Shown: in pieces, positions 5,306 through 19,777 of the stretch
Layout of the letters: each line of letters begins with the position of its first letter
Numbering within the stretch: the first letter of the stretch is position 1
Virus record (IMG/VR): IMGVR_UViG_2850808358_000001
Direction: 5' to 3' (one strand)
Source: a virus
Lineage: Duplodnaviria; Heunggongvirae; Uroviricota; Caudoviricetes
DNA length: 19,777 bases
Made by a program: the position numbers and the translations under genes
The notes under the pieces: model-generated
Told to the model about the DNA's origin: nothing
The model's database searches: none
What the model saw: only the letters and a program-made list of their open reading frames with translations

Positions 5306-5390
5306 GCCCCAAGATATCTGACCAACTAAGGCCATATGCGTTTCCATGCATACCTTTCAACTAACTATTCACTATTGGAAATCTTAAGAA

Positions 5391-5690
5391 ATGGAACAAA
5401 CAAGTTACAGCAAACTATCACAGCGCGACGTTGATCGCGCAGAAACAGATTTACTTATCAACCTGTCAACGCTTACACAGCGCGGTCTGGCAAAGATGAT
5501 TGGCTGCCATGAATCGAAGATCAGTCGTACCGACTGGCGGTTTATTGCTTCGGTCTTGTGTGCTTTCGGAATGGCATCAGACATCAGTCCGATTAGCAGG
5601 GCTTTTAAGTATGCGCTTGATGGACTCACCAATAAAAAACGCCCGGTGTGCAAAACCGAGCGTTCTGAACAAATCCAGATGGAATTTTAA
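5391..5690 (+). CDS. cII: CII-like transcriptional activator
   Basis: C-terminus LTNKKRPVCKTERSEQIQMEF closely matches lambda CII C-terminus as I recall it; HTH region present; position after nutR. Confidence 0.85.
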   Translation: MEQTSYSKLSQRDVDRAETDLLINLSTLTQRGLAKMIGCHESKISRTDWRFIASVLCAFGMASDISPISRAFKYALDGLTNKKRPVCKTERSEQIQMEF

Positions 5691-5712
5691 CAACATCCAA
5701 CGAGGTAATTAT

Positions 5713-5985
5713 ATGCGAAACAAAGGCTTTAATCCACCTGATACACACAAAGAAGCTAAGCGTTTGCGCTTCCTTCGTTCCATTGATGAAAGAACTCAAA
5801 TCTCTTTTGTGAAAGTTGCCAGAACTGAGCTTCTGAAAGCTGAGGCGAGGGCATTGCTCCCGTCTCTACCAAAAGAGGAGGGATATACGTTCATTCCAAA
5901 CGCATTTCTGGAAAAGCTGCTCAAAGAAGACATATCCGTAAGTCAGTTTAACGATGTTCTTAAGGTCTTTCGTCAAGGCAGGTAG
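5713..5985 (+). CDS. hypothetical protein (90 aa) between cII and the replication genes
   Basis: ORF MRNKGFNPPDTHKEAKRLRF...; GAGG SD 7 nt upstream of ATG 5713; stop overlaps the start of the next gene. Confidence 0.5.
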   Translation: MRNKGFNPPDTHKEAKRLRFLRSIDERTQISFVKVARTELLKAEARALLPSLPKEEGYTFIPNAFLEKLLKEDISVSQFNDVLKVFRQGR

Positions 5986-5987
5986 TG

Positions 5988-6872
5988 ATGAGCAATACAG
6001 CAAAAATCTACGATTTCAGCGCCGCACACGAGCGCAGGAGCAACAGGATGGAGAACCAGAAAACTGGTTACATTCCGTTGTACCGGAGCATTCTGAAACA
6101 GTCATGGGCGAAAGATGTTTATCTTCGCACCCTGTGGGAAAACCTTCTCCTGAATGCTGCCAGAAAGCCATACAAAGCGAATTTCAAAGGTCATGAATGG
6201 CATGTGCAACCCGGTCAACTGGTTGTGACAGCAGCTGATTTAGGTCTTCAGTTATGCGACAGGCATGGCAAGCCAGCAAGCCGTGATCAGGTTGAGCGGA
6301 TGCTTCAGGTTTTTGTGAAAGAGGGGATGATCTCCATTGATGGAGAGAAGCAAAAAGGTCGTGTGATCACCATCACAAATTACCATGAATATGCTCAAAA
6401 AATGGACAATTCACCCGCACATGAAGCCGCACAAACAACCGCACATCATGAACAAGAAGGTATTAACAAGAATATAAATAATATCTCTAATACTGACGTA
6501 TTAGAGAGTGCCACAGCAGACAAAAAGTCTGACAAGAAAAAACCTTCCGTTAGCTGTCAGGATGTTGTCGATGCTTACCACGAAATCCTTCCTGAAGCGC
6601 CAAGAATCCGCGCACTGAATGACAAGCGTAAAAACCAGATCCGAACGTTCTGGCGCAAAGCCGGAGTGATAACCCGCCAGCTTGACGGGCATGGGTTCAC
6701 GATGCAGGACTGGAGAAATTATTTGAGCTACGTAGGCGAAAATTGCCGATGGATGTTCGAAGAGCGCCCAAACCATCAGCGCGGAACCGTCTGGCACAAA
6801 AAGGGATTTGATTACCTGCTTAACGATAATACCTACCTGAAAGTTCGTGAGGGTGAACACGATGACCGATAA
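5988..6872 (+). CDS. replication initiation protein (O-like / P22 gene 18-like)
   Basis: 294-aa ORF directly upstream of and overlapping the DnaB-like helicase gene; position and size fit an initiator protein; family assignment from memory only. Confidence 0.7.
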   Translation: MSNTAKIYDFSAAHERRSNRMENQKTGYIPLYRSILKQSWAKDVYLRTLWENLLLNAARKPYKANFKGHEWHVQPGQLVVTAADLGLQLCDRHGKPASRDQVERMLQVFVKEGMISIDGEKQKGRVITITNYHEYAQKMDNSPAHEAAQTTAHHEQEGINKNINNISNTDVLESATADKKSDKKKPSVSCQDVVDAYHEILPEAPRIRALNDKRKNQIRTFWRKAGVITRQLDGHGFTMQDWRNYLSYVGENCRWMFEERPNHQRGTVWHKKGFDYLLNDNTYLKVREGEHDDR

Positions 6873-8298
6873 TTTTTATGCGCCGCCCCATAGCATCGAG
6901 GCAGAGCAGGCGGTGATTGGTGGATTGCTTCTGGATGATGACAGCAGTGAGCGCGTCCAGAAGGTTCTTGCGATGCTGAAGCCTGACTCATTTTACAGCC
7001 GGCCACACAAAATCCTTTTCGAAGAAATAACCAGAATGCACCGGGAGCAAAAGCCAGTAGATGGCCTGACGCTTTTCGATGAACTGGAGCGTAAATCGTT
7101 AACGGCGTCTGTTGGCGGTTTTGCTTATATCGCTGAGATCGCAAAGAACACGCCAAGCGCCGCAAACATCGTTGCCTATGCAATGCAGGTTCGCGAAACC
7201 GCAATGGAACGCTACGCCATCAACCGCATGACTGAAGCGACGGAATTGCTCTATTCCCGCAACGGAATGACTGCAACGCAGAAGTACGAAGCTATTCAGG
7301 CGATTTTCACGCAACTGACAGACCATGCAAAAACCGGATCACGTCGCGGCCTTCGCTCATTTGGTGAGGTCATGGAAGACTGGGTTAGCGACCTTGAGAA
7401 GCGTTTTGACCCGTCAGGCGAACAACGAGGAATGAGCACAGGGATCCCATCGCTGGACAGGATGCTGTCACCGAAAGGTCTGGTGAAAGGCTCTCTGTTT
7501 GTCATTGGCGCTCGCCCTAAGATGGGGAAAACGACGCTATACAGCCAGATGGCAATCAACTGCGCAGTGCATGAGAAAAAGCCCGCTCTGATGTTCAGCC
7601 TTGAAATGCCAGGTGATCAGATACTGGAAAAACTGGTAGGGCAGAAGTCTGGTGTTAACCCGAATATTTTTTACCTTCCGGCGACAAATGACGCCGATGA
7701 CGGCTATCAGGGTGATTACGATGGTGACTTCAACAGGGCGATCGAAACAGCCAATCGCTTGAGTGAAATCGACCTGCTTTACATCGACGACACGCCGGGA
7801 TTATCTCTGGCTCAAATCGTCAGCGAAAGCCGTCGAATCAAGCGAGAAAAAGGATGTGTTGGCATGATTCTGGTCGATTACCTGACACTAATGACCGCTG
7901 AAAAGGCCGATCGCAACGACCTTGCCTACGGCATGATCACCAAAGGACTGAAGAACCTTGCCAAAGAGCTTGATTGCGTTGTTGTGCTTCTGACGCAGCT
8001 TAACCGCGCACTGGAAAGCCGAACCAATAAACGCCCATTACCAAGTGACTCACGAGATACAGGGCAGATTGAACAGGATTGCGATTATTGGGTGGGGATC
8101 CATCGTGAAGGTGCTTTTGATGACAGTGTTCCACCTGGTGAAACCGAACTAATCCTTCGTCTCAATCGTCATGGCAATACCGGCACGGTGTATTGCATTC
8201 AGGCAAATGGAGCTATTTATGACACAGACCAACAGTCTGCTGAAATGCGCCGCCGTGAACGCGAGGAACCGCAGTCCAAGAAGAAAGGAGGATTCTGA
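6862..8298 (+). CDS. replicative DNA helicase (DnaB-like, P22 gene 12 type)
   Basis: N-terminal DnaB-like domain (PHSIEAEQAVIGGLLLD), Walker A-like GARPKMGKT, Walker B-like ILVDYL; ATG 6862 with GAGGG SD. Confidence 0.85.
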   Translation: MTDNFYAPPHSIEAEQAVIGGLLLDDDSSERVQKVLAMLKPDSFYSRPHKILFEEITRMHREQKPVDGLTLFDELERKSLTASVGGFAYIAEIAKNTPSAANIVAYAMQVRETAMERYAINRMTEATELLYSRNGMTATQKYEAIQAIFTQLTDHAKTGSRRGLRSFGEVMEDWVSDLEKRFDPSGEQRGMSTGIPSLDRMLSPKGLVKGSLFVIGARPKMGKTTLYSQMAINCAVHEKKPALMFSLEMPGDQILEKLVGQKSGVNPNIFYLPATNDADDGYQGDYDGDFNRAIETANRLSEIDLLYIDDTPGLSLAQIVSESRRIKREKGCVGMILVDYLTLMTAEKADRNDLAYGMITKGLKNLAKELDCVVVLLTQLNRALESRTNKRPLPSDSRDTGQIEQDCDYWVGIHREGAFDDSVPPGETELILRLNRHGNTGTVYCIQANGAIYDTDQQSAEMRRREREEPQSKKKGGF

Positions 8299-8378
8299 TG
8301 ACCATCTACATCACTGAGCTAATAACAGGCCTGCTGGTAATCGCAGGCCTTTTTATTTGGGGGAGAGGGAAGTCATGA
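8298..8378 (+). CDS. putative small hydrophobic peptide (26 aa)
   Basis: Not in the ORF track; ATG overlaps the helicase stop (TGATG) with AAGGAGGA SD 7 nt upstream; translation [26 protein letters not shown]; stop overlaps the ninB ATG (ATGA). Confidence 0.3.
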   Translation: MTIYITELITGLLVIAGLFIWGRGKS

Positions 8379-8815
8379 AAAAACTAACCTTTGAAATTCG
8401 ATCTCCAGCACATCAGCAAAACGCTATTCACGCGGTACAGCAAATTCTTCCAGACCCAACCAAACCAATCGTAGTAACCATTCAGGAACGCAACCGCAGC
8501 TTAGACCAGAATCGAAAGCTTTGGGCTTGCCTTGGTGACGTCTCTCGTCAGGTTGAATGGCATGGTCGCTGGCTGGATGCAGAAAGCTGGAAGTGTGTGT
8601 TTACCGCGGCATTAAAGCAGCAGGACGTTGTTCCTAACCTTGCCGGGAATGGCTTTGTGGTAATAGGCCAGTCAACCAGCAGGATGCGTGTAAGCGAATT
8701 TGCGGAGTTATTAGAGCTTATACAGGCATTCGGTACAGAGCGTGGCGTTAAGTGGTCAGACGAAGCGCGACTGGCTCTGGAGTGGAAAGCGCGATGGGGA
8801 GATCGGGCTGCATGA
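8375..8815 (+). CDS. ninB: NinB-like recombination protein
   Basis: [24 protein letters not shown]...; position after the replication genes matches lambdoid ninB; assignment from memory. Confidence 0.8.
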
Positions 8816-9501
8816 CTATCAAATCAAATACGCCAGCACACGACAAGGACTGCTGGCAAACGCCACTTTGGCTTTTTGATGCGCTGGATATTGAGTTTGG
8901 ATTCTGGCTGGATTCGGCAGCGAGCGACAAAAATGCTCTGTGCGCTCACTGGCTAACTGAGGCCGACGACGCGCTCAATTCTGAGTGGGTAAGCCACGGT
9001 GCAATCTGGAATAACCCACCGTACAGCAATATCAGGCCGTGGGTGGAAAAAGCCGCTGAGCAGTGTATACAACAGCGACAGACGGTAGTTATGCTTGTGC
9101 CAGAGGATATGTCAGTCGGATGGTTCAGCAAGGCTCTGGAGAGTGTTGACGAAGTTCGCATCATCACTGATGGACGGATTAATTTTATCGAACCATCGAC
9201 AGGGCTGGAGAAAAAGGGAAACAGTAAAGGCTCAATGCTGCTGATTTGGCGACCGTTCATCAGTCCCCGGCGAATGTTTACTACCGTATCCAAAGCGGCA
9301 TTGATGGCGATCGGGCAGGGCGGCATGAGGCGACAGCGACGAAGTATTACCGACATAATCTGTGAAAACTGCAAATACCTTCCAACGAAACGCTCCAGAA
9401 ATAAACGCAAGCCAATCCCAAAAGAATCTGACGTAAAAACCTTCAACTACACGGCTCACCTGTGGGATATCCGGTGGCTAAGACATCGTGCGAGGAAATG
9501 A
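8812..9501 (+). CDS. phage DNA N6-adenine methyltransferase (Dam-like) with an unusual basic C-terminal extension
   Basis: NPPYS motif (DPPY-type motif IV) and CWQTP...F.LD.AA pattern of phage Dam family; ATG 8812 overlaps the ninB stop; last ~55 aa are Lys/Arg-rich and atypical. Confidence 0.75.
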
Positions 9502-9542
9502 CTATTTATCCGGTGCGCCGCCAGAATGACGGCGCGGTGTGG

Positions 9543-9851
9543 TTAAACGAAGCGGATCTGGAGTTTTTTTCCAGTAGCGCGGGCGAATTTTTTTAGTGTG
9601 GCAAATGATGGGCCGCTGATACCTGATGCGAGATTACTTTCCATTCTGGTGATCGCGGTCGCTTTTGTTCCCATTCGCTCGGCAACTTCAGCCTGAGTTA
9701 AGCCAGCTTCTTTGCGTGCTGCCAGCATTTCATCAAGCAGTGCGAATTCGTCAGCGATAGCGTCGTATTCTGCTTTAAAAGCCGGGTCTTCCATCCATTT
9801 GGCTGCCATTTCGTCGTGTGTCATGGTGGGGAGAGTGCGTTTACCAGTCAT
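9543..9851 (-). CDS. HTH (XRE-family) antitoxin, HigA-like
   Basis: 102-aa ORF with HTH (GLTQAEVAERMGTKATAITRME); its ATG overlaps the toxin stop by 11 nt (ATGACTGGTAA); toxin-first gene order is typical of HigBA-type modules. Confidence 0.75.
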   Translation of the reverse strand: MTGKRTLPTMTHDEMAAKWMEDPAFKAEYDAIADEFALLDEMLAARKEAGLTQAEVAERMGTKATAITRMESNLASGISGPSFATLKKFARATGKKLQIRFV

Positions 9852-10170
9852 GCTTAACCTCCTTCATTCTGGTTTCAGCTTTCTTGCGTTCGGCTGGCGG
9901 TGTTTTCTGCGTTTTCTTTACAAAACTATGCAGCATGATGATGCGTTTCCCTGTCAGAGTGCAGTAAAAAACACGCGCGATCCCATCGTTGCCTTTAATT
10001 CTGAGTTCGAAAAGTCCGTCACCAAAGGCGCTGGTGTGAGGTTCTCCGAGATTGCTGCCATATATCTTCATACGTTCAACGAGATGTTGGTATCGGGCAC
10101 GCATACTCAATGGAAGCCGATCGACTTCCAGCCTTACATCTTCACTGTAGTATTCGATAGTGTAGTTCAT
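9841..10170 (-). CDS. RelE/HigB-superfamily toxin (Gp49-like)
   Basis: 109-aa ORF from MNYTIEYYSEDVRLEVDRLP...; size, toxin-first order and overlap with an HTH partner fit a type II toxin. The ORF track extends it to 10251 via an upstream start that I reject. Confidence 0.75.
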   Translation of the reverse strand: MNYTIEYYSEDVRLEVDRLPLSMRARYQHLVERMKIYGSNLGEPHTSAFGDGLFELRIKGNDGIARVFYCTLTGKRIIMLHSFVKKTQKTPPAERKKAETRMKEVKHDW

Positions 10171-10180
10171 AGGTATCAAC

Positions 10181-10196
10181 ATAACAAAATCGTTAT
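10181..10196. promoter_or_regulatory. palindromic putative operator upstream of the toxin gene
   Basis: ATAAC-AAAATC-GTTAT perfect inverted repeat 11..26 bp upstream of the toxin ATG, overlapping a candidate -10 region on the - strand. Confidence 0.4.
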
Positions 10197-10292
10197 ATGC
10201 ATTCAAGGCCTGTAGTTGACGACAACACATATCCGGGGCTATATTCCTCATACGCCAGCAAAATCTGGCGTCGGGATTGAGACCCCGGATGT

Positions 10293-10749
10293 TTACGGAG
10301 CGATATGAGACGCGCCCGCGTCTTTTTTCATATCGTTTGCACAGTCACATTCGCGATTTATGGTGGGCTGTGTGGGGGAGCCGAAACCGATAACCATTTC
10401 TTTGTTGAAGAGACAAAGCGAGCAGGCCAGTCCGATCGCGGTCCAACTGAGCCCCATTTCACGGGATTTTTCGGTAATACCATTCTCCCGATTGCTCCAG
10501 CGTTCCATAATCCAGTGGATCCACTCCTCCTGCTTAGGGAAGAGTAAAAACGGAATGGTCACCGGCAGGCCATAATCAATATTACGCGGGTCCGTTGTCA
10601 TGCCCCAGCCGATAATGAACTGAGCCGGGTTGGTACGGTAAAACTGTTTTAGTGCAGGCAATATTTCAGGATTCTGGCGAATGCGCTGTAGGCGTTCCAT
10701 CCGCCATTCAAAAACCATCTGGTAATCAGGATGTTTAAAATCGAAGGGT
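10293..10749 (-). pseudogene. large terminase subunit, N-terminal ATPase portion only; split by IS600 and 3'-truncated
   Basis: Frame ...[15 protein letters not shown]...[20 protein letters not shown]... resembles the N-terminal ATPase region of P22-like TerL; continuous in frame with the 6 codons at 12014..12030 across IS600 copy 2; stops after ~150 aa where a full TerL would be ~450-500 aa. Confidence 0.65.
10308..10328 (+). terminator. intrinsic terminator-like hairpin with T5 tract on the + strand
   Basis: AGACGCG..CGCGTCT stem followed by TTTTT; lies inside the 3' end of the truncated terL reading frame, suggesting foreign junction sequence. Confidence 0.45.
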
Positions 10750-10813
10750 TGAGGTAGCCTGAGTTTAACGGACACTCCTTCCTGAAATAGAATGGCATCA
10801 GAAGGAGCTAATA

Positions 10814-11116
10814 ATGAGCAGAAAAACCCAACGTTACTCTAAAGAGTTCAAAGCCGAAGCTGTCAGAACGGTTCTTGAAAATCAACTTTCGATCAGTGAA
10901 GGCGCTTCCCGATTATCCCTTCCTGAAGGCACTTTAGGACAATGGGTTACCGCCGCCAGAAAAGGGCTCGGTACTCCTGGTTCCCGCACGGTGGCTGAAC
11001 TGGAATCTGAAATTCTGCAACTGCGTAAGGCGTTAAATGAAGCTCGCCTTGAGCGAGATATATTAAAAAAAGCAACAGCGTATTTTGCACAGGAGTCGCT
11101 GAAAAATACGCGTTAA
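10814..11116 (+). CDS. IS3-family transposase OrfA
   Basis: Identical protein to copy 1 OrfA. Confidence 0.9.
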
Positions 11117-11151
11117 TCGAACAATGGCGACAACAATTTCCCATTGAAGCG

Positions 11152-11970
11152 ATGTGTCAGGTATTTGGTGTATCCAGGAGCGGTTATTACAACTGGGTAC
11201 AGCATGAACCCTCAGACAGAAAACAAAGTGATGAGCGGCTAAAACTGGAGATTAAGGTGGCACATATCCGCACTCGCGAAACATATGGAACCCGGCGGCT
11301 CCAGACGGAGCTGGCAGAGAATGGCATCATCGTTGGTCGTGACCGACTGGCACGTCTTCGTAAGGAGCTAAGGCTACGCTGTAAGCAGAAACGCAAGTTC
11401 AGAGCGACTACGAACCCGAACCACAATCTGCCAGTTGCGCCAAATCTGCTGAACCAGACGTTCGCTCCTACAGCACCAAATCAGGTCTGGGTGGCGGACC
11501 TGACGTATGTTGCCACACAGGAGGGATGGTTGTACCTCGCTGGCATCAAAGATGTTTATACGTGCGAAATTGTCGGCTACGCCATGGGAGAGCGCATGAC
11601 AAAAGAGCTGACAGGTAAAGCCCTGTTTATGGCGCTCAGGAGCCAGCGCCCACCTGCCGGGCTAATCCACCACTCTGATCGAGGTTCACAGTACTGCGCA
11701 TACGATTACCGGGTCATACAGGAGCAGTTTGGTCTGAAAACATCAATGTCGCGTAAAGGTAACTGTTACGACAACGCTCCGATGGAAAGCTTCTGGGGAA
11801 CGCTGAAAAATGAGAGCCTGAGCCACTATCGTTTTAATAACCGGGATGAAGCCATCTCAGTAATACGGGAATACATTGAGATTTTCTACAATCGTCAGCG
11901 TCGTCACTCTCGTCTGGGGAATATCTCCCCGGCAGCCTTCAGGGAAAAATATCATCAGATGGCTGCTTAA
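11152..11970 (+). CDS. IS3-family transposase OrfB (DDE domain)
   Basis: Identical to copy 1 OrfB except R14W (c to t at 11194). Confidence 0.9.
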   Translation: MCQVFGVSRSGYYNWVQHEPSDRKQSDERLKLEIKVAHIRTRETYGTRRLQTELAENGIIVGRDRLARLRKELRLRCKQKRKFRATTNPNHNLPVAPNLLNQTFAPTAPNQVWVADLTYVATQEGWLYLAGIKDVYTCEIVGYAMGERMTKELTGKALFMALRSQRPPAGLIHHSDRGSQYCAYDYRVIQEQFGLKTSMSRKGNCYDNAPMESFWGTLKNESLSHYRFNNRDEAISVIREYIEIFYNRQRRHSRLGNISPAAFREKYHQMAA

Positions 11971-12013
11971 AAAAAGAACAAATGGTAGTGTCCGCTATTG
12001 CCAGTACACCTCA

Positions 12014-12030
12014 GGGAATGGTAACGGCAT
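12014..12030 (-). pseudogene. first 6 codons of terL (MPLPFP), separated from the rest by IS600 copy 2
   Basis: ATG at 12030..12028 overlapping the terS stop region; joins in frame to 10749 when the IS is removed. Confidence 0.5.
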
Positions 12031-12032
12031 AC

Positions 12033-12587
12033 TTAGCCCATCATTTTTCTATACACCTCTGCGGCCTGCTCAGGCGTTAATTTGGTAATTTCTGTTCTGA
12101 CTGGTCCTCCGTCAGCGCCAGTCACTTCATTTTTGACGTTGTCTTTAAACGCCTGAACAGAAACATGACGCCCAAGCAACTCAAGGTTTTTAACCTTATC
12201 AGGCCATTTGATTTTCTTCAGAAGTGCGGTGCTATCTGCGGATACCATCTCCACGACATCCATTCCTGATAGCGTTGTGCGCCATACCTTAGGCCAGTCT
12301 TTAATGGGCTTTAGCTCACCGTTTTGCAGGAGAATGTCGAGCACATCCATCTGGTCGATTTCAACCAATCTACGAAGAACATAGGCGGCATCTATACCCG
12401 TCTGCTCAACGCGGGCGGATTTAAGTTCAGCAACGAATTTTTGAACATTAACATTTGCTAATAATCGAGATGCCTGCTCATTGGCGGTCTTCTCGCTGTA
12501 GCCCGCCCTGATAGCTGCCTGTGTGCCGTTCAGATCTTTCAGGTACTCACGGGCAAACAGCTCTTGTTTGTCGGTGAGCTTTGCCAT
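12033..12587 (-). CDS. terminase small subunit
   Basis: 184-aa ORF MAKLTDKQELFAREYLKDLNGTQAAIRAGYSEKTA...; HTH-like N-terminus typical of small terminase subunits; immediately upstream of terL. Confidence 0.75.
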   Translation of the reverse strand: MAKLTDKQELFAREYLKDLNGTQAAIRAGYSEKTANEQASRLLANVNVQKFVAELKSARVEQTGIDAAYVLRRLVEIDQMDVLDILLQNGELKPIKDWPKVWRTTLSGMDVVEMVSADSTALLKKIKWPDKVKNLELLGRHVSVQAFKDNVKNEVTGADGGPVRTEITKLTPEQAAEVYRKMMG

Positions 12588-12688
12588 TATTTGTGCTCCG
12601 TTTATCCGTTAAAAGGGATATCAGTTAAGTTATCCCGTGTAGGGTATAAGCCATTATCAAGCCCACCAGTAGATGGGCTTTGTAATGG

Positions 12689-12946
12689 CTACTTCGCTTT
12701 TGCTTCCGCTCGCTTACGCCGGCGCTCTTCTTTCCTCTCGGCTTTTGCCATGTCCATGAATGTCTGCATGATCGAGTTCCGCATCATGTAGCTAACAAAG
12801 TGATGATTGACACAGCCGTTGAGGCGCAGCTGCTCGCCAAACTCATCCACCGAGGCCAATGCTTCCATCATGCCCTTCTCGCCTTTCATGAACTCTGAGA
12901 AGTCGCGCCCCGCTCTGGAGGCGCATTCAATGACACGATCACTCAT
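12689..12946 (-). CDS. hypothetical protein (85 aa) with basic C-terminus
   Basis: ATG overlaps the stop of the KilA-N gene (ATGA coupling); C-terminal ERKEERRRKRAEAKAK; no family recognised. Confidence 0.5.
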   Translation of the reverse strand: MSDRVIECASRAGRDFSEFMKGEKGMMEALASVDEFGEQLRLNGCVNHHFVSYMMRNSIMQTFMDMAKAERKEERRRKRAEAKAK

Positions 12947-13440
12947 CCCGGAAGCCCGGGGATCGTTATCTGCAGCTGGTTAGCCAGGGAGTTAATCTCA
13001 GCGACCAACACTGGCTTCGTATAGCGCCATGCCGCCAGCCCTTGTCCACAGAAGCTCGCCATATCTTTTTTCTGATCAAACTCATGACACTTCATATTGA
13101 GCTGCGCACTTAAGCTGTTGCGATGCTGAAGTTCTCCGGTGAAGTAGTCATCCAGGACTTTATAGGCTGCATATTTAAATCCGGGGTTTAGCCATGCTGC
13201 ATAATCATAAGCAACAAACTTCCCGCCATATGTTCCACCGTGTACACCGCGCTCAGTAAAAACCACAGATTCGTGGTTTTTCTCCAGCTCGGCTAAGAAC
13301 TCTTTGGTCTGCTTGTTTCGCAGGTAGTGGTACGGAGATTCAGATTCACTTTTACCACTGGCTTTCCACATATCAGTGAGGCAGATCATTCCTGATTCAT
13401 CAACACGGATCGGTGTATTAAAAAGCGTGATTGCTTTCAT
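12943..13440 (-). CDS. KilA-N domain protein
   Basis: Pattern ...KQTKEFLAELEK...TERGVHGGTYGGKFVAYDYAAWLNPGF... fits the KilA-N DNA-binding domain signature as I recall it. Confidence 0.7.
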   Translation of the reverse strand: MKAITLFNTPIRVDESGMICLTDMWKASGKSESESPYHYLRNKQTKEFLAELEKNHESVVFTERGVHGGTYGGKFVAYDYAAWLNPGFKYAAYKVLDDYFTGELQHRNSLSAQLNMKCHEFDQKKDMASFCGQGLAAWRYTKPVLVAEINSLANQLQITIPGLPG

Positions 13441-13588
13441 GGCGTCTTTACCTTTTAGAAAGATGAGCCTGTTCGCACAGAAAAGCCGTCCCCGAGATGG
13501 TCGCCACCATATACGGCAATTCTCAGGCTCAGCTTTCTGAAAGACTCGGGGTTTATATGCGCTGCGATGCGCGGTTTACTGCGGACAT

Positions 13589-13612
13589 ATAAAAGCCCCG
13601 CAAGTGCGAGGC
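13589..13612 (-). terminator. terminator-like hairpin downstream of Rz/Rz1
   Basis: Minus strand GCCTCGCA-CT-TGCGGGGC (one mismatch) followed by TTTTAT. Confidence 0.45.
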
Positions 13613-13645
13613 TCATTAAATGGACTTTGTGATTTGCAAAAAAAT

Positions 13646-14113
13646 TTATTTCAGGCACTGAGTCCTGATGTACTCCTGAAGCATTCTCAATGCTGTCTGG
13701 TCGCTGATGATTCCGTCCCGGATACCGAGAACGTTTCGTCCAGCAACTGGAGAGAGTTCGACGGTGGCATCATTGCCCATGCCGGAGGCGCTGGAGGTTT
13801 CGGCTGAGGATGGCACAGGGCATTTTCCTTTGACGAGCACCCGACCACCATTATCAAGCTTGCGCCGAAGAGCATCATTTTCAGCTTTCGCATTGGCTAA
13901 CTCCTTCGTGTATTTAGCATCGAGTGCATCAGCAGCACGCTGGCGCTGCTGCATGTCAGTAATGGTTGCGTTCGCCAGCTTCAGTTCTCTTGCGTTTTTG
14001 TCGCGCTGCTCTTTGTAGGTAATGGCGTTATCACGGTAATGATTAACAGCCCATGACAGGCGGACGATGATGCAGATAACCAGAGCGGAGATAATCGCGG
14101 TGACTCTGCTCAT
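13646..14113 (-). CDS. Rz: Rz i-spanin
   Basis: [17 protein letters not shown]...[11 protein letters not shown]...[18 protein letters not shown] closely resembles lambda Rz; ATG overlaps the R stop (ATGA). The ORF track starts 4 codons earlier at 14125. Confidence 0.85.
13687..13893 (-). CDS. Rz1: Rz1 o-spanin (lipoprotein) embedded in the +1 frame of Rz
   Basis: [21 protein letters not shown]... with lipobox-like VVGC and Pro-rich PKPPAPPAW, like lambda Rz1; fully inside Rz in another frame. Confidence 0.6.
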
Positions 14114-14607
14114 TGCTGCCCCCACAAACAGACTTCACGCTCAATCTCACGACGGGTCATCAGCCCTTTCCATTGCTTACCGCCAGCATATGTCCAGCGA
14201 CGTAGCTGGTCACATGCGCCTTTGATATCGCCCTGGTTTATTTTGCGAAGAAGCGTCGATGTTCTGAAATTGCCAGCGCCCACGTTGTAAACGAACGAGT
14301 AAAGAGCGCCGCGCGTTGTTTCCGGTATATCGACTTTGATGTACGGGTTAATTTGTCTGGCGACAGTGGCAAGGTCTTTATTCAGGAGAGCTTTGCATTC
14401 TGCTTCGGTATACGTTTTACCAGGCATGATGTCTTTTCCGGTGTGTCCGTGACATACAGTCCATACACCAATGATATCTTTGTATGGTATGTAGCTGACA
14501 CCTTCCAGACCATCGTTACCACCTGGGCCAGTGATTAACACAGATGCTATAGCAACAGCCCCGCCACCAATAGCAACTGCAACAGCCTTGCGTAATGATG
14601 GCGACAT
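14110..14607 (-). CDS. R: SAR endolysin (phage-21 R type lysozyme)
   Basis: N-terminal Gly/Ala-rich signal-anchor-release segment ([18 protein letters not shown]) followed by a lysozyme domain; near-identical to phage 21 R as I recall it. Confidence 0.9.
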
Positions 14608-14822
14608 TATTCACCTCTCGCAGCCTTACGCTTGTCTTCTCTTAATTTGAAATACAGATTCGTCAGATAAGTCAGAAGCCCCAGAAGCAGACTTCCCAGC
14701 ACACCAATCGCAGCCCACTGTGATGGACTGACCTGATCCAACCACTGCAAAAACCAGTAGCCGGCACTGCCGGCGGAGGTGCCGTAGGCAATGCCCGTTG
14801 AAATTTTGTCCATGGATTTCAT
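14607..14822 (-). CDS. S: pinholin (phage-21 S type) with dual-start motif MKSM
   Basis: 71-aa [47 protein letters not shown]...; two TM segments; GGAGG SD upstream; start overlaps the R gene. Confidence 0.9.
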
Positions 14823-14937
14823 AGCCTCACCTCCGCAAATAACGGATGGCGTAGTTCTTATATTGGAAGGGAAAAAAAAGGCCGCAGCGTAACTGTCACT
14901 GATGAATTCAGGATAGCCAGTGGCTACGGCTCAGTTA

Positions 14938-15013
14938 TGGTGCTGGTTAACGGACTTGAACCGCTACCCATTCGCTTACAAGGCGACTGCTCTACCATTA
15001 GAGCTAAACCAGC
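14938..15013 (-). tRNA. phage-encoded tRNA, anticodon read as UGU (tRNA-Thr), CCA encoded
   Basis: Manual fold of the minus strand: acceptor GCUGGUU/AACCAGC, D-arm GCUC/GAGC with GG loop, anticodon loop CUUGUAA, T-arm with UUCAAGU loop, 3' ACCA; one non-WC pair at the top of the anticodon stem. Confidence 0.6.
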
Positions 15014-15018
15014 ATATT

Positions 15019-15093
15019 TGGCGGGACAGCGTGGACTCGAACCACGATAAGAAGGTTAACAGCCTTCCGTAATGACCTTTATACGACTGACCC
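15019..15093 (-). tRNA. phage-encoded tRNA, anticodon read as GUU (tRNA-Asn), CCA encoded; may be degenerate
   Basis: Manual fold: T-arm CGUGG-UUCGAGU-CCACG perfect, anticodon stem GAAGG/CCUUC perfect with loop CUGUUAA; acceptor and D stems each carry one mismatch. Confidence 0.5.
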
Positions 15094-15125
15094 AAATAAA
15101 AAATCCCGAAAGCAGGCTCTATTCC
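15094..15125 (-). terminator. putative tR'-like terminator region (U-tract) ending the short pR' transcript
   Basis: Minus strand ...AGAGCCTGCTTTCGGGATTTTTTATTT about 180 nt downstream of pR'; resembles the lambda tR' 3' end as I recall it, but I could not fold a clean stem. Confidence 0.35.
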
Positions 15126-15282
15126 TATGTGCTCTCGAGTTTATGATGCGCATGTCAGTGCGCTTAGCGAAAAACGCCGTAAACCCTCGCCCGACAGGGC
15201 GGGGAGCAGTCACAACTTAAAGATGAGGTGGGTAAAAAACCGAAAGAATGTGAACGGATATAAACCTGCCATTCTTGAGTCA

Positions 15283-15311
15283 AATTTACCCAACTTTATT
15301 CAAAAAGTCAA
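15283..15311 (-). promoter_or_regulatory. late promoter pR' with qut-like region
   Basis: Minus strand TTGACT-N17-TAAATT followed by TTGACTCAAGAATGG; closely resembles lambda pR'/qut as I recall it; located ~40 bp downstream of Q. Confidence 0.65.
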
Positions 15312-15353
15312 TATCATGCCGTTAAGATATTGCCATCCATGGCAATCATGCCG

Positions 15354-15977
15354 CTAACGTGTGACCGCATTCAAAATGTTGTCTGCGATTGACTCTTCTT
15401 TGTGGCATTGCACCACCAGAGCGTCATACAGCGGCTTAACAGTGCGTGACCATGTGGGTTGGGTGAGGTTTGGGATTAGCATCGTTACAGCGCGATATGC
15501 TGCACTTGCTGGCATCCTTGAATAGCCGACACCTTTGCATCTTCCGCACTCTTTCTCGACAACTCTCCCCCACTGCTCTGTTTTGGCTATATCAACTGCC
15601 AGACCTGTTCCGTGGCAATCTCTGCATCTTGCGCCCGGCGTCGCGGCACTACGGCAATAATCCGCATAAGCGAATGTTGCGAGCACTTGCAGTACCTTTG
15701 CCTTAGTATTTCCTTCGAGCTTTGCCACACCACGGTATTTCCCCGATACCTTGTGTGCAAATTGCATCAGATAGTTGATAGCCTTTTGTTTGTCGTTCTG
15801 GCTGAGTTCATGCTTACCGCAAAATGCAGCCATTCCGAATCCGGCTTGTGATTGCGCCATCCCCATAGCAGCCATCACATCAGTACCGGAAAGAGAGTCA
15901 GAAGCCGTAGCCCGTGGTGAGTCGCTCATCATCGGGCTTTTTGGCGAATGAAATTTAGCTACGCTTTCGAGTCTCAT
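15354..15977 (-). CDS. Q: antitermination protein Q (Cys-rich type, as in phage 82/21-like Q)
   Basis: 207-aa ORF with CRDCHGTG...CGRCKGVGY zinc-binding-like motifs; directly upstream of pR'; ATG overlaps the upstream gene stop. Confidence 0.7.
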   Translation of the reverse strand: MRLESVAKFHSPKSPMMSDSPRATASDSLSGTDVMAAMGMAQSQAGFGMAAFCGKHELSQNDKQKAINYLMQFAHKVSGKYRGVAKLEGNTKAKVLQVLATFAYADYCRSAATPGARCRDCHGTGLAVDIAKTEQWGRVVEKECGRCKGVGYSRMPASAAYRAVTMLIPNLTQPTWSRTVKPLYDALVVQCHKEESIADNILNAVTR

Positions 15978-16162
15978 CGTCTTCCCCTCTTGCCCTGTTT
16001 GACCATCAGGACGCCGTTAACTATTACGTGACGCTCGCCTTTGCTGTCTCGGTTGTACTTGAGCACTGTTCCTCTTGCGCAGGAAAGCATCCTCGCCACT
16101 TCGGTCTGATTGCCTCGTGTCTGGATAAGAAGCTCTGGTATCGTTTGAATTGTGGCGTTCAT
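15974..16162 (-). CDS. small nin-region protein (62 aa), possibly DNA-binding
   Basis: ORF MNATIQTIPELLIQTRGNQTEVARMLSCARGTVLKY...; translationally coupled (ATGA overlaps) with rusA upstream and Q downstream. Confidence 0.5.
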   Translation of the reverse strand: MNATIQTIPELLIQTRGNQTEVARMLSCARGTVLKYNRDSKGERHVIVNGVLMVKQGKRGRR

Positions 16163-16521
16163 ACGTTCTCCAGTTCGGTGATTTTTATTCCAAGCCTTCC
16201 GCCTGGTACTTTCACACCACGAATTACGCGAATGTCATCGAATTGCTCGTCGTCTTCCGCAAATCCGGCGTGGATAAGAGAGTCGAGTAGCCCCTTCAGG
16301 ATGTTGTCGAGGTCGCGGCGGCGGGAGTCTGGAACGTCTGCGATGACTTTGATGCGGAGTCGTGCTTTGGTGAAAATATCTAACTTGAGTTGGCGGATGA
16401 TTTGCTGAACGTCTTTTCGGTATTTCTGGCCTTTATCGCTGATGTAGTATTGGCTTCCCCGTCTTCGCCAGTAGGTGTTCAGCGACGGTGGGTATGGAAG
16501 CACAAACTGATATTCGTTCAT
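16159..16521 (-). CDS. rusA: RusA Holliday-junction resolvase
   Basis: Motifs PPSLNTYW and DSRRRDLDNILKGLLDSL match the RusA family signature. Confidence 0.85.
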   Translation of the reverse strand: MNEYQFVLPYPPSLNTYWRRRGSQYYISDKGQKYRKDVQQIIRQLKLDIFTKARLRIKVIADVPDSRRRDLDNILKGLLDSLIHAGFAEDDEQFDDIRVIRGVKVPGGRLGIKITELENV

Positions 16522-16808
16522 GGCTTAATCTTCCCCTCCTTCAGCAGTATCGCCTGCGTCCTGATCACGCCTTCGAGGTGGTAAAGTCTGGCGTCTTTGT
16601 TGTCGAGGTTATGGGTGCGTCGGTCGATTTCATCGTGACACGCGCTACAAGCCCATGCGCCGATCAGGTCGTCAGGCTTCATTCCCGTTCCGCAAATTCC
16701 AGCCATCCGGTAATGTGCCAGAACTGTAGTTTCAGGATTGCCATTGCATACGCCGTAAATACGTACCTGGCATTCTCTGCCGCGCGCTTCTTTGCGTAAG
16801 TTAGCCAT
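16518..16808 (-). CDS. YbcO-like nin-region protein (DUF1364-type, Cys/His-rich putative nuclease)
   Basis: MANLRKEARGRECQVRIYGVCNGNPETTVLAH...CSACHDEIDRR resembles DLP12 YbcO as I recall it; GGAGG SD; upstream of rusA as in DLP12. Confidence 0.75.
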   Translation of the reverse strand: MANLRKEARGRECQVRIYGVCNGNPETTVLAHYRMAGICGTGMKPDDLIGAWACSACHDEIDRRTHNLDNKDARLYHLEGVIRTQAILLKEGKIKP

Positions 16809-17536
16809 TAAGCAGCCTCCCCTGTTACTTTCAGCATTCCGTTATAGAGCAGCTTTCTGGTCAGCCACTGTTGGCCACGCCCGGTGATTTTTGTGGTGAA
16901 CGATATCTGTATTCCGTGATTTGTGTTGACTGCTGTTTCTTTCACTGTGAAATAGCCGCGATCCATATATTCCTGCATTGGCACATTGCGCCGGGAACCT
17001 GAAGCAATAAGGATTTTGTGATCGCGCATCCACGCAAACAGTTTGTTTGGACCAATTCCAACAACCTTTGCAAAGTTTCCAATCAAAATTCCGCTGGCCT
17101 CGCTAACGCGATCGGCAAACTCAACTTTAGGTGCTGCGAGAGCAAGCTGTTTCTCCAGTTCAGCCTTCTGGTCTTCAAGGTCGGCCGCAAGGCGCAATGC
17201 CTCAGAAAAGGTTTGTGGGATTTTCGCGGTTGCCCCTTCAAGCTCTCGCCAACGGTCAACAAGACGAGCGGTGAATTCCGGCGACAACTGGGCAACGACA
17301 ATAATGCTGTCGCGCTTACCTTGTTCGCCTTCGAAGACGTAATGCTCGTACTGAACATTGAACCCTAAGTTATTGATTCTTTCGGAAACCTCAAATTGAG
17401 GATGCCGGATAACACCATTTTTAGCCAGCGTTTCGATGGTACGTTTCACATTGTCATGACGCTTACCCACCAACTCAGCGATTTCAATGCTGGTCATTTT
17501 GATGGCGTTGCTATTTATCAGCTCGTTCATTGTCAT
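16808..17536 (-). CDS. phage antirepressor (Rha-type N-terminal domain plus Ant-like C-terminal domain)
   Basis: N-terminus ...MTSIEIAELVGKRHDNVKRTIETL matches the Rha family signature; the likelier start is ATG 17530 (GAGG SD at 8 nt) rather than 17536. Confidence 0.75.
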   Translation of the reverse strand: MTMNELINSNAIKMTSIEIAELVGKRHDNVKRTIETLAKNGVIRHPQFEVSERINNLGFNVQYEHYVFEGEQGKRDSIIVVAQLSPEFTARLVDRWRELEGATAKIPQTFSEALRLAADLEDQKAELEKQLALAAPKVEFADRVSEASGILIGNFAKVVGIGPNKLFAWMRDHKILIASGSRRNVPMQEYMDRGYFTVKETAVNTNHGIQISFTTKITGRGQQWLTRKLLYNGMLKVTGEAA

Positions 17537-17553
17537 GTCCTCTCATATTGAAA

Positions 17554-17575
17554 ATTCAGCAATAAAAAACCCAGC
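17554..17575 (-). terminator. rho-independent terminator
   Basis: Minus strand CCCAGC-TTCG-GCTGGG hairpin followed by TTTTTT; downstream of the ORF ending at 17605. Confidence 0.6.
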
Positions 17576-17604
17576 CGAAGCTGGGTCGTTGCGTTGGCAA
17601 TCTG

Positions 17605-17976
17605 TCAGTAGTGATGTAGTGAAGGAGGTAATTCTTTGTTCTTAAGTCTTACCCATGCAGAAAGATTCGTTGGTCCGTCTGGCTCATTAATATCAACATC
17701 TCGTGTGTGATTGATTAAAACGTCTCTCGCCATTCCGATAACATACGAGAACTCATGACCGTAGTCGTGGCATCTGCCGGAATAGTTAGACTGAATTTGT
17801 CTTAGCGCCGGATACAGTTCGCGGAATAATGCCTGTGAGCGGTTGGCATAATCCCACAACCATACCAGACTGTTTGCATCTTTTGCAGAAAGCTCGCTGG
17901 TTTTCTTCTCGTGATGACCTGCGCTTTTCGAAGTCTGGCTGAAATAGCAGTCTTCCAGTTTTTCGAACACGTCCAT
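17605..17976 (-). CDS. hypothetical protein, or C-terminal part of a frameshifted ORF6N-domain gene
   Basis: 123-aa [17 protein letters not shown]... overlapping by ~175 nt the other open frame that continues from the ORF6N domain. Confidence 0.4.
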
Positions 17977-18281
17977 GCCTGATCGGTTTCGAGCATCTTC
18001 GCGTGACGGGCTGCGCCTCGTTCTGTCCAGAGGATGAGCGAGCGGGCATTTTTACCAACTAACCCGATTGTTTCGGGTCTGTTCTTAAACTCGCGTAATT
18101 CGTTTTTTTCAATTTTAAAGTAATGCTTTCCTACCACGAATCGCATCGTGTTGTTCAGAAAATTATCAGAAATGTTTTTGATTTTTGTTCCGTATAACTG
18201 CGCCAGAAGTTCAGTTGTAATAACGGGGATCTGGTTGTGGGTGATTGCAGGAAGAGTGTCGACAGAAATTTGAGTGAGCAT
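17802..18281 (-). CDS. ORF6N-domain (antirepressor-like) protein
   Basis: ...[15 protein letters not shown]...NISDNFLNN...[14 protein letters not shown]...[24 protein letters not shown] fits the ORF6N-type domain pattern; ATG 18281 with GGAG SD; the ORF track extends the frame into IS600 because the IS end is open in that frame. Confidence 0.55.
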
Positions 18282-18409
18282 AACGATAACTCCGTACATT
18301 TGGTCATTATCGCCACCTTCTGGTCTCAATAATCTGGTGGCGAGCTGAGGTAGCCTGAGTTTAACGGACACTCCTTCCTGAAATAGAATGGCATCAGAAG
18401 GAGCTAATA

Positions 18410-18712
18410 ATGAGCAGAAAAACCCAACGTTACTCTAAAGAGTTCAAAGCCGAAGCTGTCAGAACGGTTCTTGAAAATCAACTTTCGATCAGTGAAGGCG
18501 CTTCCCGATTATCCCTTCCTGAAGGCACTTTAGGACAATGGGTTACCGCCGCCAGAAAAGGGCTCGGTACTCCTGGTTCCCGCACGGTGGCTGAACTGGA
18601 ATCTGAAATTCTGCAACTGCGTAAGGCGTTAAATGAAGCTCGCCTTGAGCGAGATATATTAAAAAAAGCAACAGCGTATTTTGCACAGGAGTCGCTGAAA
18701 AATACGCGTTAA
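18410..18712 (+). CDS. IS3-family transposase OrfA
   Basis: Identical protein to copies 1 and 2. Confidence 0.9.
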   Translation: MSRKTQRYSKEFKAEAVRTVLENQLSISEGASRLSLPEGTLGQWVTAARKGLGTPGSRTVAELESEILQLRKALNEARLERDILKKATAYFAQESLKNTR

Positions 18713-18747
18713 TCGAACAATGGCGACAACAATTTCCCATTGAAGCG

Positions 18748-19564
18748 ATGTGTCAGGTATTTGGTGTATCCAGGAGCGGTTATTACAACCGGGTACAGCA
18801 TGAACCCTCAGACAGAAAACAAAGTGATGAGCGGCTAAAACTGGAGATTAAGGTGGCACATATCCGCACTCGCGAAACATATGGAACCCGGCGGCTCCAG
18901 ACGGAGCTGGCAGAGAATGGCATCATCGTTGGTCGTGACCGACTGGCACGTCTTCGTAAGGAGCTAAGGCTACGCTGTAAGCAGAAACGCAAGTTCAGAG
19001 CGACTACGAACCCGAACCACAATCTGCCAGTTGCGCCAAATCTGCTGAACCAGACGTTCGCTCCTACAGCACCAAATCAGGTCTGGGTGGCGGACCTGAC
19101 GTATGTTGCCACACAGGAGGGATGGTTGTACCTCGCTGGCATCAAAGATGTTTATACGTGCGAAATTGTCGGCTACGCCATGGGAGAGCGCATGACAAAA
19201 GAGCTGACAGGTAAAGCTCTGTTTATGGCGCTCAGGAGCCAGCGCCCACCTGCCGGGCTAATCCACCACTCTGATCGAGGTTCACAGTACTGCGCATACG
19301 ATTACCGGGTCATACAGGAGCAGTTTGGTCTGAAAACATCAATGTCGCGTAAAGGTAACTGTTACGACAACGCTCCGATGGAAAGCTTCTGGGAACGCTG
19401 AAAAATGAGAGCCTGAGCCACTATCGTTTTAATAACCGGGATGAAGCCATCTCAGTAATACGGGAATACATTGAGATTTTCTACAATCGTCAGCGTCGTC
19501 ACTCTCGTCTGGGGAATATCTCCCCGGCAGCCTTCAGGGAAAAATATCATCAGATGGCTGCTTA
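18748..19564 (+). pseudogene. IS3-family transposase OrfB inactivated by frameshift
   Basis: G-run is GGG at 19391..19393 where copies 1 and 2 have GGGG; the ORF stops prematurely at 19401 (217 aa instead of 272). Confidence 0.8.
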
Positions 19565-19608
19565 AAAAAAGAACAAATGGTAGTGTCCGCTATTGCCAGT
19601 ACACCTCA

Positions 19609-19777
19609 CCCTGACGTATACCCACAGACGACCCGTTTTCGTCTTTCCGTTCCCCGGGGCCAGTACTTTCACCGGAGTGTCATCTGCGTGCACCTTTCCT
19701 GCCTCCAGAACATAGTCATTCAGCGCTATATACAGAGGACGGAGTTTGTCTGCCATTTCTGATACCCAGCGCACCAT
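19609..19777 (-). pseudogene. IS66-family transposase fragment, interrupted by IS600 copy 3 and running off the window
   Basis: Frame ...HADDTPVKVLAPGNGKTKTGRLWVYVR ends exactly at the IS600 terminus; motif typical of IS66-family transposases. Confidence 0.6.

Follow-up and report, generated by a model that had tools for sequence, protein, structure and literature searches.

The window analysed here, a 19,777-nucleotide stretch of phage-derived DNA at CP026877.1:78665-98441 in its chromosome, raises a question of gene order. Its immunity and replication arm has a rightward early operon, and the antirepressor, antitermination, lysis and terminase genes are read from the opposite strand. Is this an inversion, a chance meeting of two prophage remnants or the native order of some phage? 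We conclude, from sequence comparison, that the window is very probably a defective lambdoid prophage in which a 6.7-kb segment, extending from the antirepressor genes as far as about codon 129 of terL, was flipped in situ with respect to the early arm.

Gene identities were taken from precomputed Pfam hits on the gene calls of the source genome, and the related loci compared with the window carry L-numbers (L001, L002 and so on). The collinear reference, L001, is the prophage of E. coli RMDEC465 (NZ_CM177019.1 5047516-5081848). Pfam matches, collinearity with L001 and L002, and a terminator scan together define the early arm:

1201 to 10375, + strand: early arm as a whole (immunity, replication and proximal nin genes)
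1198 to 1320, - strand: Nmad5'
1500 to 1916, - strand: 138-aa ORF
1919 to 2302, - strand: N (N_peptide, Pfam)
between N and cI: a 177-aa ORF, then DUF3024
4209 to 4916, - strand: cI (Peptidase_S24 repressor, Pfam)
5028 to 5252, + strand: cro (Pfam)
5391 to 5690, + strand: cII (Pfam)
6048 to 6872, + strand: O (Rep_O, Pfam)
6862 to 8298, + strand: DnaB helicase (Pfam)
8375 to 8815, + strand: ninB (Pfam)
8812 to 9501, + strand: dam-ninE fusion (Pfam)
9543 to 9851, - strand: HTH antitoxin
9841 to 10230, - strand: Gp49/RelE-like toxin
10307 to 10324, + strand: terminator-like hairpin from the terminator scan, with spacer U1 after it

The order N, cI, cro, cII, O, DnaB, ninB, dam-ninE, toxin-antitoxin is lambdoid, with the pR operon on the + strand. 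Divergent cI and cro, together with cII and N, make up a lambdoid immunity region that is 98.9% identical to the annotated region of L002. A defective cI, as the 189-aa source call would imply, was ruled out by a fully open 235-codon frame starting at the ATG at 4916.

The late block is entirely on the - strand and is listed here from its outer end downward:

10387 to 18345, - strand: late block as a whole (antirepressors, ybcO, rusA, ninH, Q, tRNAs, lysis genes, KilA-N, terS and a terL stub)
18282 to 18345: spacer U3, right end of the late block
17605 to 18281, - strand: ORF6N/P22AR_C antirepressor, frameshifted
16808 to 17530, - strand: ANT antirepressor (pRha/ANT)
16518 to 16808, - strand: ybcO
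16159 to 16521, - strand: rusA
between Q and rusA, - strand: ninH
15354 to 15977, - strand: Q (Antiterm)
15019 to 15093, - strand: tRNA-Asn
14938 to 15013, - strand: tRNA-Thr
14607 to 14822, - strand: holin (holin_2_1)
14110 to 14607, - strand: lysozyme
13646 to 14113, - strand: Rz (Phage_lysis)
13687 to 13893, - strand: Rz1 (Rz1 Pfam match on the equivalent ORF in L026)
12943 to 13440, - strand: KilA-N
between terS and KilA-N, - strand: 85-aa ORF
12033 to 12587, - strand: terS (Terminase_2)
12014 to 18345, - strand: main part of the late block, aligning to L001 14001-20335 and ending at 12014 with the first ~6 codons of terL
10387 to 10749, - strand: terL stub (codons ~7-129), 99.5% identical to the L001 TerL gene
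10293 to 10775, - strand: chimeric 160-aa ORF, terL running out into spacer sequence

Going down the - strand from 18281, the Pfam matches read ORF6N, pRha/ANT, YbcO, RusA, NinH, Antiterm (Q) and holin_2_1, followed by lysozyme, Phage_lysis, KilA-N, the 85-aa ORF, Terminase_2 and the 160-aa TerL-derived ORF. The Q, holin, lysozyme and Rz frames are all open in the window's strain. All genes of the lambdoid succession from replication and nin through Q and lysis to terminase are thus present, but the block from the antirepressors to the terL remnant lies on the opposite strand, so that transcription does not run in one direction. The first-pass annotation had described this late block and a + strand cro-to-dam operon ending at 9501, and the Pfam and tRNA calls agree with it on gene content and strands. 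Two details require amendment: terL is present only as a stub of ~129 codons, itself split by IS600 copy 2, and the inverted block holds the distal nin genes rather than the whole nin region, ninB, dam and ninE being still part of the early arm.

All modules from cro to terL are collinear, at 95-99% identity, in closely related prophages (E. coli RMDEC465, FDAARGOS_943 and the Shigella-type loci L024, L025, L027-L030, L032 and L033), a result consistent with inversion in the window, and nine further lambdoid or P22-like loci were collinear without exception (9/9). The collinear prophages of E. coli RMDEC465 and of the Shigella-type chromosomes CP061527.1 and CP026836.1 are 95-99% identical to the window over both ninB-dam-ninE-toxin-antitoxin-spacer and antirepressor-Q-tRNA-lysis-terS-terL, and they have the spacer and the 11-mer pair in common. 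Unlike the window, they run in one direction from cro to terL, their terL is full length (539 aa), and their spacer contains no IS600; a 60-mer of that spacer is uninterrupted in five collinear loci. These comparisons show that collinearity is the ancestral, widespread state. Among phage records and complete E. coli genomes, none had opposed gene order across the junction, and such an order cannot be native and functional because the inversion junction cuts short terL, an essential gene.

On L001 the window's two arms map in opposite directions, which bears out the earlier proposal of a late arm inverted with respect to the immunity-replication module. Window 8298-10386 corresponds to L001 22474-20375 in reverse (99.0% identity), and window 10376-18347 to L001 13630-20335 forward (95.8-99.5%). 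These alignments overlap by 11 nt, which defines the left junction:

10376 to 10386: left inversion junction J2, an 11-bp microhomology, GGGAGCCGAAA, common to the spacer and terL

This sequence occurs once in the window. In the collinear relatives it forms an inverted repeat, with one copy in terL and one in the spacer between the toxin-antitoxin module and the antirepressor gene; in L001 it lies at 13630-13640, with its reverse complement at 20375-20385, 6.7 kb away. The breakpoint therefore falls inside a short sequence of both parental sites and involves no specialised site, and J2 is the only novel junction away from any IS. It cuts terL at about codon 129, and the last ~28 residues of the chimeric ORF are translated spacer (...GFGS|PTQPTINRE... 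in place of the usual ...GFGS|RKEEYVDS...). The left breakpoint had previously been placed within 9502-10330, about 50 bp too far left. The sequence at 9502-10375, with the antitoxin, the Gp49 toxin, the terminator-like hairpin and spacer, is native early arm and collinear with the relatives.

These alignments also bear on the alternative raised in the first-pass annotation, a juxtaposition of two prophage remnants. On that view, IS-mediated deletion or rearrangement would have joined pieces of different prophages, and their opposed orientation would be accidental. The chromosome is full of IS600 and ISSfl3, other IS-mediated rearrangements surround the locus, and lambdoid prophages are mosaic, such that shared relatives are not absolute proof of common origin. 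However, the early and the late arm each align at 99% with one common set of collinear relatives, and the join, which lacks an IS, uses an 11-bp repeat found in one phage genome precisely at the two sites that were joined. Moreover, the arm ends lie only 39-41 bp apart in a single intergenic spacer of the relatives (L001 20375 and 20335; 39 nt against L024, at 99.2-99.3% identity), which argues that one prophage was rearranged in place. We reject juxtaposed remnants as very unlikely.

An assembly artefact, or a programmed phase-variable segment, would also produce opposed arms. Three identical 1.26-kb repeats invite misassembly, and population heterogeneity had been raised earlier. Against this, J2 lies in unique sequence rather than in a repeat, and it is identical in four NCBI assemblies, at least one of them from a separate accession series, and in two IMG/VR contigs that differ elsewhere (a 75-mer across J2 in L007, L023, L026 and L031; a 36-mer in L035 and L036). 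A switch of the Hin/Gin/Cin or tyrosine-recombinase type did not emerge either: the gene calls at the locus include no recombinase or invertase, inverted repeats of ≥30 nt are absent, and a single orientation was found in 6/6 sequences carrying it. We therefore give this explanation hardly any credence. The genomes with J2 are nearly identical to the window (~6 SNPs per 9 kb) and differ from one another in later IS600 insertions, and a search of 5,426 genomes of E. coli and 50,697 phage records did not find J2 in any of them. The arrangement is accordingly genuine and derived. It is fixed in a single narrow, small clonal lineage and is older than further IS600 hops. The host chromosome is probably of Shigella type, given its IS600 and ISSfl3 load and the absence of the junction from the E. 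coli RefSeq set. The 75-mer spanning the junction (10346-10420) is a handy marker for the lineage.

The right boundary is of a different kind, and it requires a description of the insertion sequences:

1 to 1200, + strand: IS600 copy 1, identical to copies 2 and 3; RefSeq matches are annotated as IS3-like IS600 transposase
10750 to 12013, + strand: IS600 copy 2, 1264 bp, near the terL start
18346 to 19608, + strand: IS600 copy 3, right boundary of the inverted block
19609 to 19777, - strand: internal fragment of tnpC of ISSfl3 (IS66 family), a 100% match to ISSfl3 transposase genes, abutting IS600 copy 3

The elements are ~1.26 kb long, carry orfA (HTH_Tnp_1) and orfB (rve), and match annotated members of the IS600 family at 99-100%. 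The window begins 64 nt inside copy 1, whose right flank (1201-1384) matches Nmad5 in L001 and L002, and this copy cuts the pL operon within the Nmad5 gene. In L001 the two flanks of copy 2 directly adjoin, overlapping by 2-3 bp (GGT/GGG), and the copy 2 site is empty in L007, L023, L031 and L035, all of which share the inversion; copy 2 is, on this comparison, a later simple insertion. A composite transposon formed by copies 2 and 3 is ruled out by the sister genomes that have the inversion and lack copy 2, and by the mismatch of the outer flanks (GGT vs. CCC).

The earlier placement of the right breakpoint at IS600 copy 3 (18346) was correct. This copy has an orfB truncated by a 1-bp deletion. 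The sequences next to it, AGC at its left end and CCC at its right, lack the short (3-bp) target-site duplication expected of a simple insertion, implying recombinant flanks. Its U3|IS600 junction also occurs in L023 and was found in no E. coli genome searched, and its outer flank is foreign. L023 and L035 have ~2 kb of additional DNA at the ISSfl3 fragment, and their outer flank reads int'-attL-mlrA', which corresponds to the left end of a prophage that integrated at mlrA. All three IS600 copies share the + orientation and the left junction has no IS, so inverted IS copies do not bound the segment at both ends. Inversion between inverted IS copies may have contributed an earlier step.

Two routes to an inversion in place can be considered. 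In the first, a single reciprocal inversion would have flipped the segment, with short-homology recombination or replication template switching acting on the 11-bp inverted repeats, and IS600 copy 3 would have arrived independently. In its favour, the ancestral order has the 11-mers as inverted repeats separated by 6.7 kb, and this route yields J2 directly, with the fewest steps to that junction. However, it needs a chance IS600 landing within 41 bp of a breakpoint, inversions at such short inverted repeats are rare in E. coli, and searches of the window, IMG/VR, the GTDB representative genomes and JGI metagenomes turned up no copy of the predicted reciprocal junction (U2-11mer-terL distal). 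We regard it as a serious possibility that falls somewhat short of an even chance.

In the second route, the first event would have been an inversion between two IS600 copies in opposite orientation, one in the spacer and the other within mlrA immediately beyond attL, and J2 would have followed by exchange between short direct repeats. That inversion would place both 11-mers in direct orientation, such that the J2 exchange would be a duplication or an excision and reintegration. The int'-attL-mlrA' flank in L023 and L035 has exactly the predicted orientation, copy 3 lacks a target duplication, as expected of a recombinant IS, and a classical IS600 × IS600 inversion demonstrably occurred at the same locus and distinguishes its sister strains. 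Still, this route requires an 11-bp exchange over >20 kb and trimming deletions, the int-mlrA piece might come from another prophage, and the early region is different in the mlrA prophage that was examined in E. coli. No intermediate with IS600 at the spacer site of a collinear prophage was found in E. coli. We rate this order of events at close to even odds.

Under an inversion in place by either route, we infer two events, one exchange at the 11-bp repeat and one between IS600 copies. The mlrA-integrated prophage beside copy 3 is plausibly, if not demonstrably, the window's own; were it so, either order of events would give the same product. Subsequent IS-mediated deletions would then account for the loss of int/xis, recombination genes, the remaining terL and all structural genes. 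Neither the window nor its 10-kb flanks contained int/xis, a full terL, portal, head or tail genes, or att sites, and the element is not a complete lambdoid prophage.

Geometry predicts that neither pR nor the early operon still serves Q and the lysis genes, because transcripts from pR would now enter the terL stub and IS600 in antisense. This decoupling is of little consequence given that int/xis, all structural genes and most of terL are already lost. It is an improbable but conceivable idea that the inversion was selected as a "disarming" that blocks SOS-induced lysis, or that the microhomology join so near an IS600 end (39-41 bp) reflects repair of a break provoked by that end. If disarming were true, the lineage would keep its intact immunity region, toxin-antitoxin, Q, holin, lysozyme and Rz without SOS-induced lysis. 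More simply, the locus is an ordinary rearrangement scar in an IS-riddled, probably Shigella, chromosome, with no new biological system. Its importance is small and of housekeeping value, opening no long-standing question. It does offer a nucleotide-resolved case of a lambdoid prophage immobilised by, as we reconstruct it, one short-homology join, IS600 exchanges and deletions. It also carries an annotation warning: the ORF at 10293-10775 is a chimeric terL stub, and the element cannot be an inducible phage.

Known systems that resemble the locus include cryptic lambdoid prophages of E. coli K-12 such as DLP12, with its ybcO-rusA-Q-essD-rrrD-rzpD cassette; the homologue of the window's lysozyme is named rrrD in RefSeq. 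Like the window, DLP12 is a defective remnant with a ybcO-rusA-Q-holin-lysozyme-Rz cassette and IS elements at its edges. Unlike DLP12, which is collinear, the window has its cassette flipped relative to the immunity region, and its immunity and replication genes are still there.

The genomic setting is that of IS-mediated inversions in Shigella, where Shigella branches account for 103 of the 114 inversions reconstructed across a set of E. coli and Shigella (PMC8072062), and one boundary of the inverted block is an IS600 with hybrid flanks. By contrast, the left junction of the block has no IS and is an 11-bp microhomology join in unique phage DNA. In that respect it resembles short-repeat rearrangements, namely spontaneous E. 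coli deletions and inversions at short homologies and the template switching at short inverted repeats during replication that has been modelled in yeast (PMC10766183), where a short sequence is likewise common to both parental sites and no specialised recombination site takes part. It differs from them in that the event here is embedded in a multi-step, IS-driven history.

We inventoried the gene content of the window from the ORF list, a tRNA scan and a repeat scan, with Pfam matches for every called gene. The results agree with the gene content and strand assignments of the first-pass annotation. By exact protein matches, the window corresponds to positions ~78665-98441 of the 5.13-Mb chromosome CP026877.1 (GCA_002950035.1).

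Genes and insertion sequences of the window
Ending at 9501, + strand: Cro, CII, Rep_O, DnaB, NinB and a Dam+NinE fusion (Pfam on gene calls)
Upstream of the + strand set, - strand: S24 repressor, DUF3024, N and an Nmad5 stub cut by IS600 copy 1 (Pfam)
From 18281 downward, - strand: ORF6N, pRha/ANT, YbcO, RusA, NinH and Q (Pfam)
14938-15093, - strand: tRNA-Thr(TGT) and tRNA-Asn(GTT), between Q and the holin gene (tRNA scan)
After the tRNAs, - strand: holin, lysozyme, Rz, KilA-N, an 85-aa ORF, terS and a 160-aa TerL-derived ORF (Pfam)
<1-1200, + strand: IS600 copy 1 (repeat scan)
10750-12013, + strand: IS600 copy 2 (repeat scan)
18346-19608, + strand: IS600 copy 3 (repeat scan)
19609-19777: internal fragment of ISSfl3 tnpC, the outer flank of IS600 copy 3

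The nearest complete E. coli relative, a prophage of strain RMDEC465 (L001), runs in one direction throughout from cro onward, except for a toxin-antitoxin (TA) pair. Its order is cro-cII-replication-ninB-dam-ninE, a RelE/Gp49-type toxin and HTH antitoxin on the opposite strand, then P22AR/ORF6N, ANT, ybcO, rusA, Q, tRNA-Asn/Thr, holin, lysozyme and Rz, followed by terS, a full-length TerL and the head genes. The same collinear order was found in FDAARGOS_943, in eight Shigella-type loci with an identical toxin (L024, L025, L027-L030, L032 and L033) and in nine other lambdoid or P22-like loci. In line with the first-pass annotation, the opposed gene order of the window is therefore not native: every relative examined is collinear. 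DNA across the window's junction was found in 0 of 5,426 complete E. coli genomes and 0 of 50,697 phage records.

Several smaller features were apparent in these comparisons. L001 and L004, both collinear, also keep the tRNA-Thr/tRNA-Asn pair. The window's own TA pair (9543-10230; Gp49/RelE-family toxin and HTH antitoxin) is encoded on the opposite strand from the nin genes, a native placement that all collinear relatives share. The assembly collection lists the exact toxin protein in 159 blocks, Shigella-type chromosomes among them, and keeping it may have limited the sites at which deletions ended. The antirepressor ORF6N/P22AR_C (17605-18281) is 225 aa long in L001 and in L023, a sister locus of the window. 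Here a 1-bp deletion at 17973, seen in none of the relatives compared (L001, L023, L024 and L030), breaks it into ORFs of 159 and 123 aa; the gene may be a genuine pseudogene, or the deletion may be a sequencing error in a homopolymer.

We mapped the breakpoints by BLAST of L001 against the window.

Alignment of the window to L001
Window 8298-10386: L001 22474-20375, reversed, 98.95% identity
Window 10376-10748: L001 13630-14002, forward, 99.5%
Window 12014-12687: L001 14001-14674, forward, 99.3%
Window 16139-18347: L001 18127-20335, forward, 95.8%

Both arms thus map to one relative in opposite directions, bearing out the reading that the late arm is inverted relative to the immunity-replication module. 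The TA pair and spacer through 10375 belong to the early arm, and the inverted block (10387-18345) corresponds to L001 13641-20333, interrupted by the later arrival of IS600 copy 2. In L001, the arm ends lie 39-41 bp apart within a single intergenic spacer, and the gap is likewise 39 nt against CP061527.1 (L024), at 99.2-99.3% identity. Two unrelated remnants would not be expected to break off at neighbouring positions of one phage. This is therefore a rearrangement of a single prophage, and we rejected the alternative, also raised in the first-pass annotation, that two remnants had been juxtaposed.

At the left junction, the two L001 alignments overlap on window 10376-10386, the 11-mer GGGAGCCGAAA. 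This lies in L001 within terL (13630-13640) and, as its reverse complement, in the spacer (20375-20385), so the ancestral phage had two inverted copies separated by 6.7 kb; a single copy is present in the window. The join interrupts TerL at roughly codon 129 (full length 539), just past VIGFGS, and the chimeric ORF continues with a 27-letter tail from spacer sequence in place of RKEEYVDS. The breakpoint interval first suggested (9502-10330) was consequently ~50 bp too far left, and the proposed block start at 10293 only marks where the chimeric ORF terminates. Two Logan short-read contigs, L009 (ERR200280) and L010 (ERR200316), match the early arm at 99.9-100% identity and end at window 10368 and 10313, 8-63 nt before the junction, likely because a second prophage in those genomes contains the spacer as well.

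The exact junction 75-mer was present in four NCBI assemblies (CP026877.1, the source, and CP026845.1, CP026846.1 and JARKNR010000001.1), and a 36-mer across it also in two IMG/VR contigs. These carriers are near-clonal (~6 SNPs per 9 kb) but set apart by later events. Among them, only the source genome has IS600 copy 2, while other IS600 insertions interrupt lysozyme (L023), O (L031 and L036) and Q (L036), and 5 bp are missing from Q in L023. Where IS600 copy 2 does not interrupt it, the chimeric ORF has a 156-aa form, recorded for only three contigs in a collection of ~15 billion proteins. A shared junction with differing later events indicates that the inversion is genuine, older than these IS600 hops, fixed, and limited to one narrow lineage; an assembly artefact was rejected on the same grounds. 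We also rejected an inversion switch, as no recombinase gene was among the locus gene calls, the repeat scan found no long inverted repeats in the window, and all sequences with the junction share a single orientation. Separately, an 11-bp deletion at 9319-9323 relative to L001 and L031 joins dam and ninE into one 229-aa ORF (8812-9501). It is common to CP026845.1 and JARKNR01 and absent in CP026846.1, which has the inversion, so the deletion came later.

The other breakpoint had been placed at IS600 copy 3 (18346), and U3, the late-arm piece of the spacer, indeed directly adjoins this copy, 64 nt upstream of the ORF6N start. The three copies of the 1264-bp element, all on the + strand, are identical apart from a single-base deletion in copy 3, and RefSeq labels 99-100% identical DNA "IS3-like element IS600 family transposase". 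The deletion removes one G near 19391-19394 from orfB of copy 3 (18748-19401), giving 217 aa vs. 272 aa in copies 1 and 2, and this copy is probably transposition-defective. Copy 2 has an imperfect target duplication (GGT left, 10746-10749; GGG right, 12014-12016; empty site GGGG), and copy 3 has none (AGC left, CCC right). No E. coli genome carried IS600 at the U3 site. Beside copy 3, sisters L023 (535-2567) and L035 (9994-12022) have ~2.03 kb of extra DNA: the rest of ISSfl3 tnpC, a 5′-truncated tyrosine integrase, its att junction and mlrA codons ~20-95. This stretch represents the left end of a prophage inserted at mlrA, and the same junction is seen in 454 E. coli genomes. Since sister genomes keep this DNA, its loss from the window is a strain-specific IS-adjacent deletion.

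Functionally, pR transcripts would run past dam-ninE, antisense across the TA genes and through a terminator-like hairpin (10307-10324, terminator scan) into the terL stub and IS600. With Q on the opposite strand, this geometry implies that the early operon could not supply it. Decoupling of Q carries little practical weight, given that the element has no int/xis, recombination genes or virion genes and lacks 76% of terL.

If the int'-attL-mlrA' piece is assumed to belong to the same prophage, the L023-type final order (int'-attL-mlrA', IS600, U3-late block-terL', 11-mer, U1-TA-early arm-Nmad5', IS600, where U1 is the early-arm piece of the spacer) would result from one exchange at the 11-bp repeat and one IS600 × IS600 exchange, then trimming deletions. 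IS600 copies in the spacer and in mlrA would be the partners. The 11-mer inversion could have come first, followed by IS600-mediated duplication or excision, or an IS600 × IS600 inversion could have preceded a short-direct-repeat exchange; their products are identical, and we weight the two orders about equally. The predicted reciprocal junction was absent from the window, IMG/VR, GTDB representative genomes and JGI metagenomes.

Overall, the rearrangement is an unremarkable outcome of prophage decay in a genome rich in IS elements; the one mildly notable detail is a clean 11-bp microhomology junction 39-41 bp from an IS600 end. The outer flank of IS600 copy 1 is ycaM'-ycaN-ycaK-pflA in CP026845.1 and ycaI'-ihfB-rpsA-cmk in CP026877.1, where a fourth, inverted IS600 with the ycaN-pflA flank lies ~3 kb right of the window. 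The whole remnant thus appears to have flipped between sister strains, in what looks from these flanks like a classical IS600 × IS600 inversion at the locus. Inversion rates in Shigella are high, with 103 of 114 reconstructed inversions on Shigella branches (PMC8072062).
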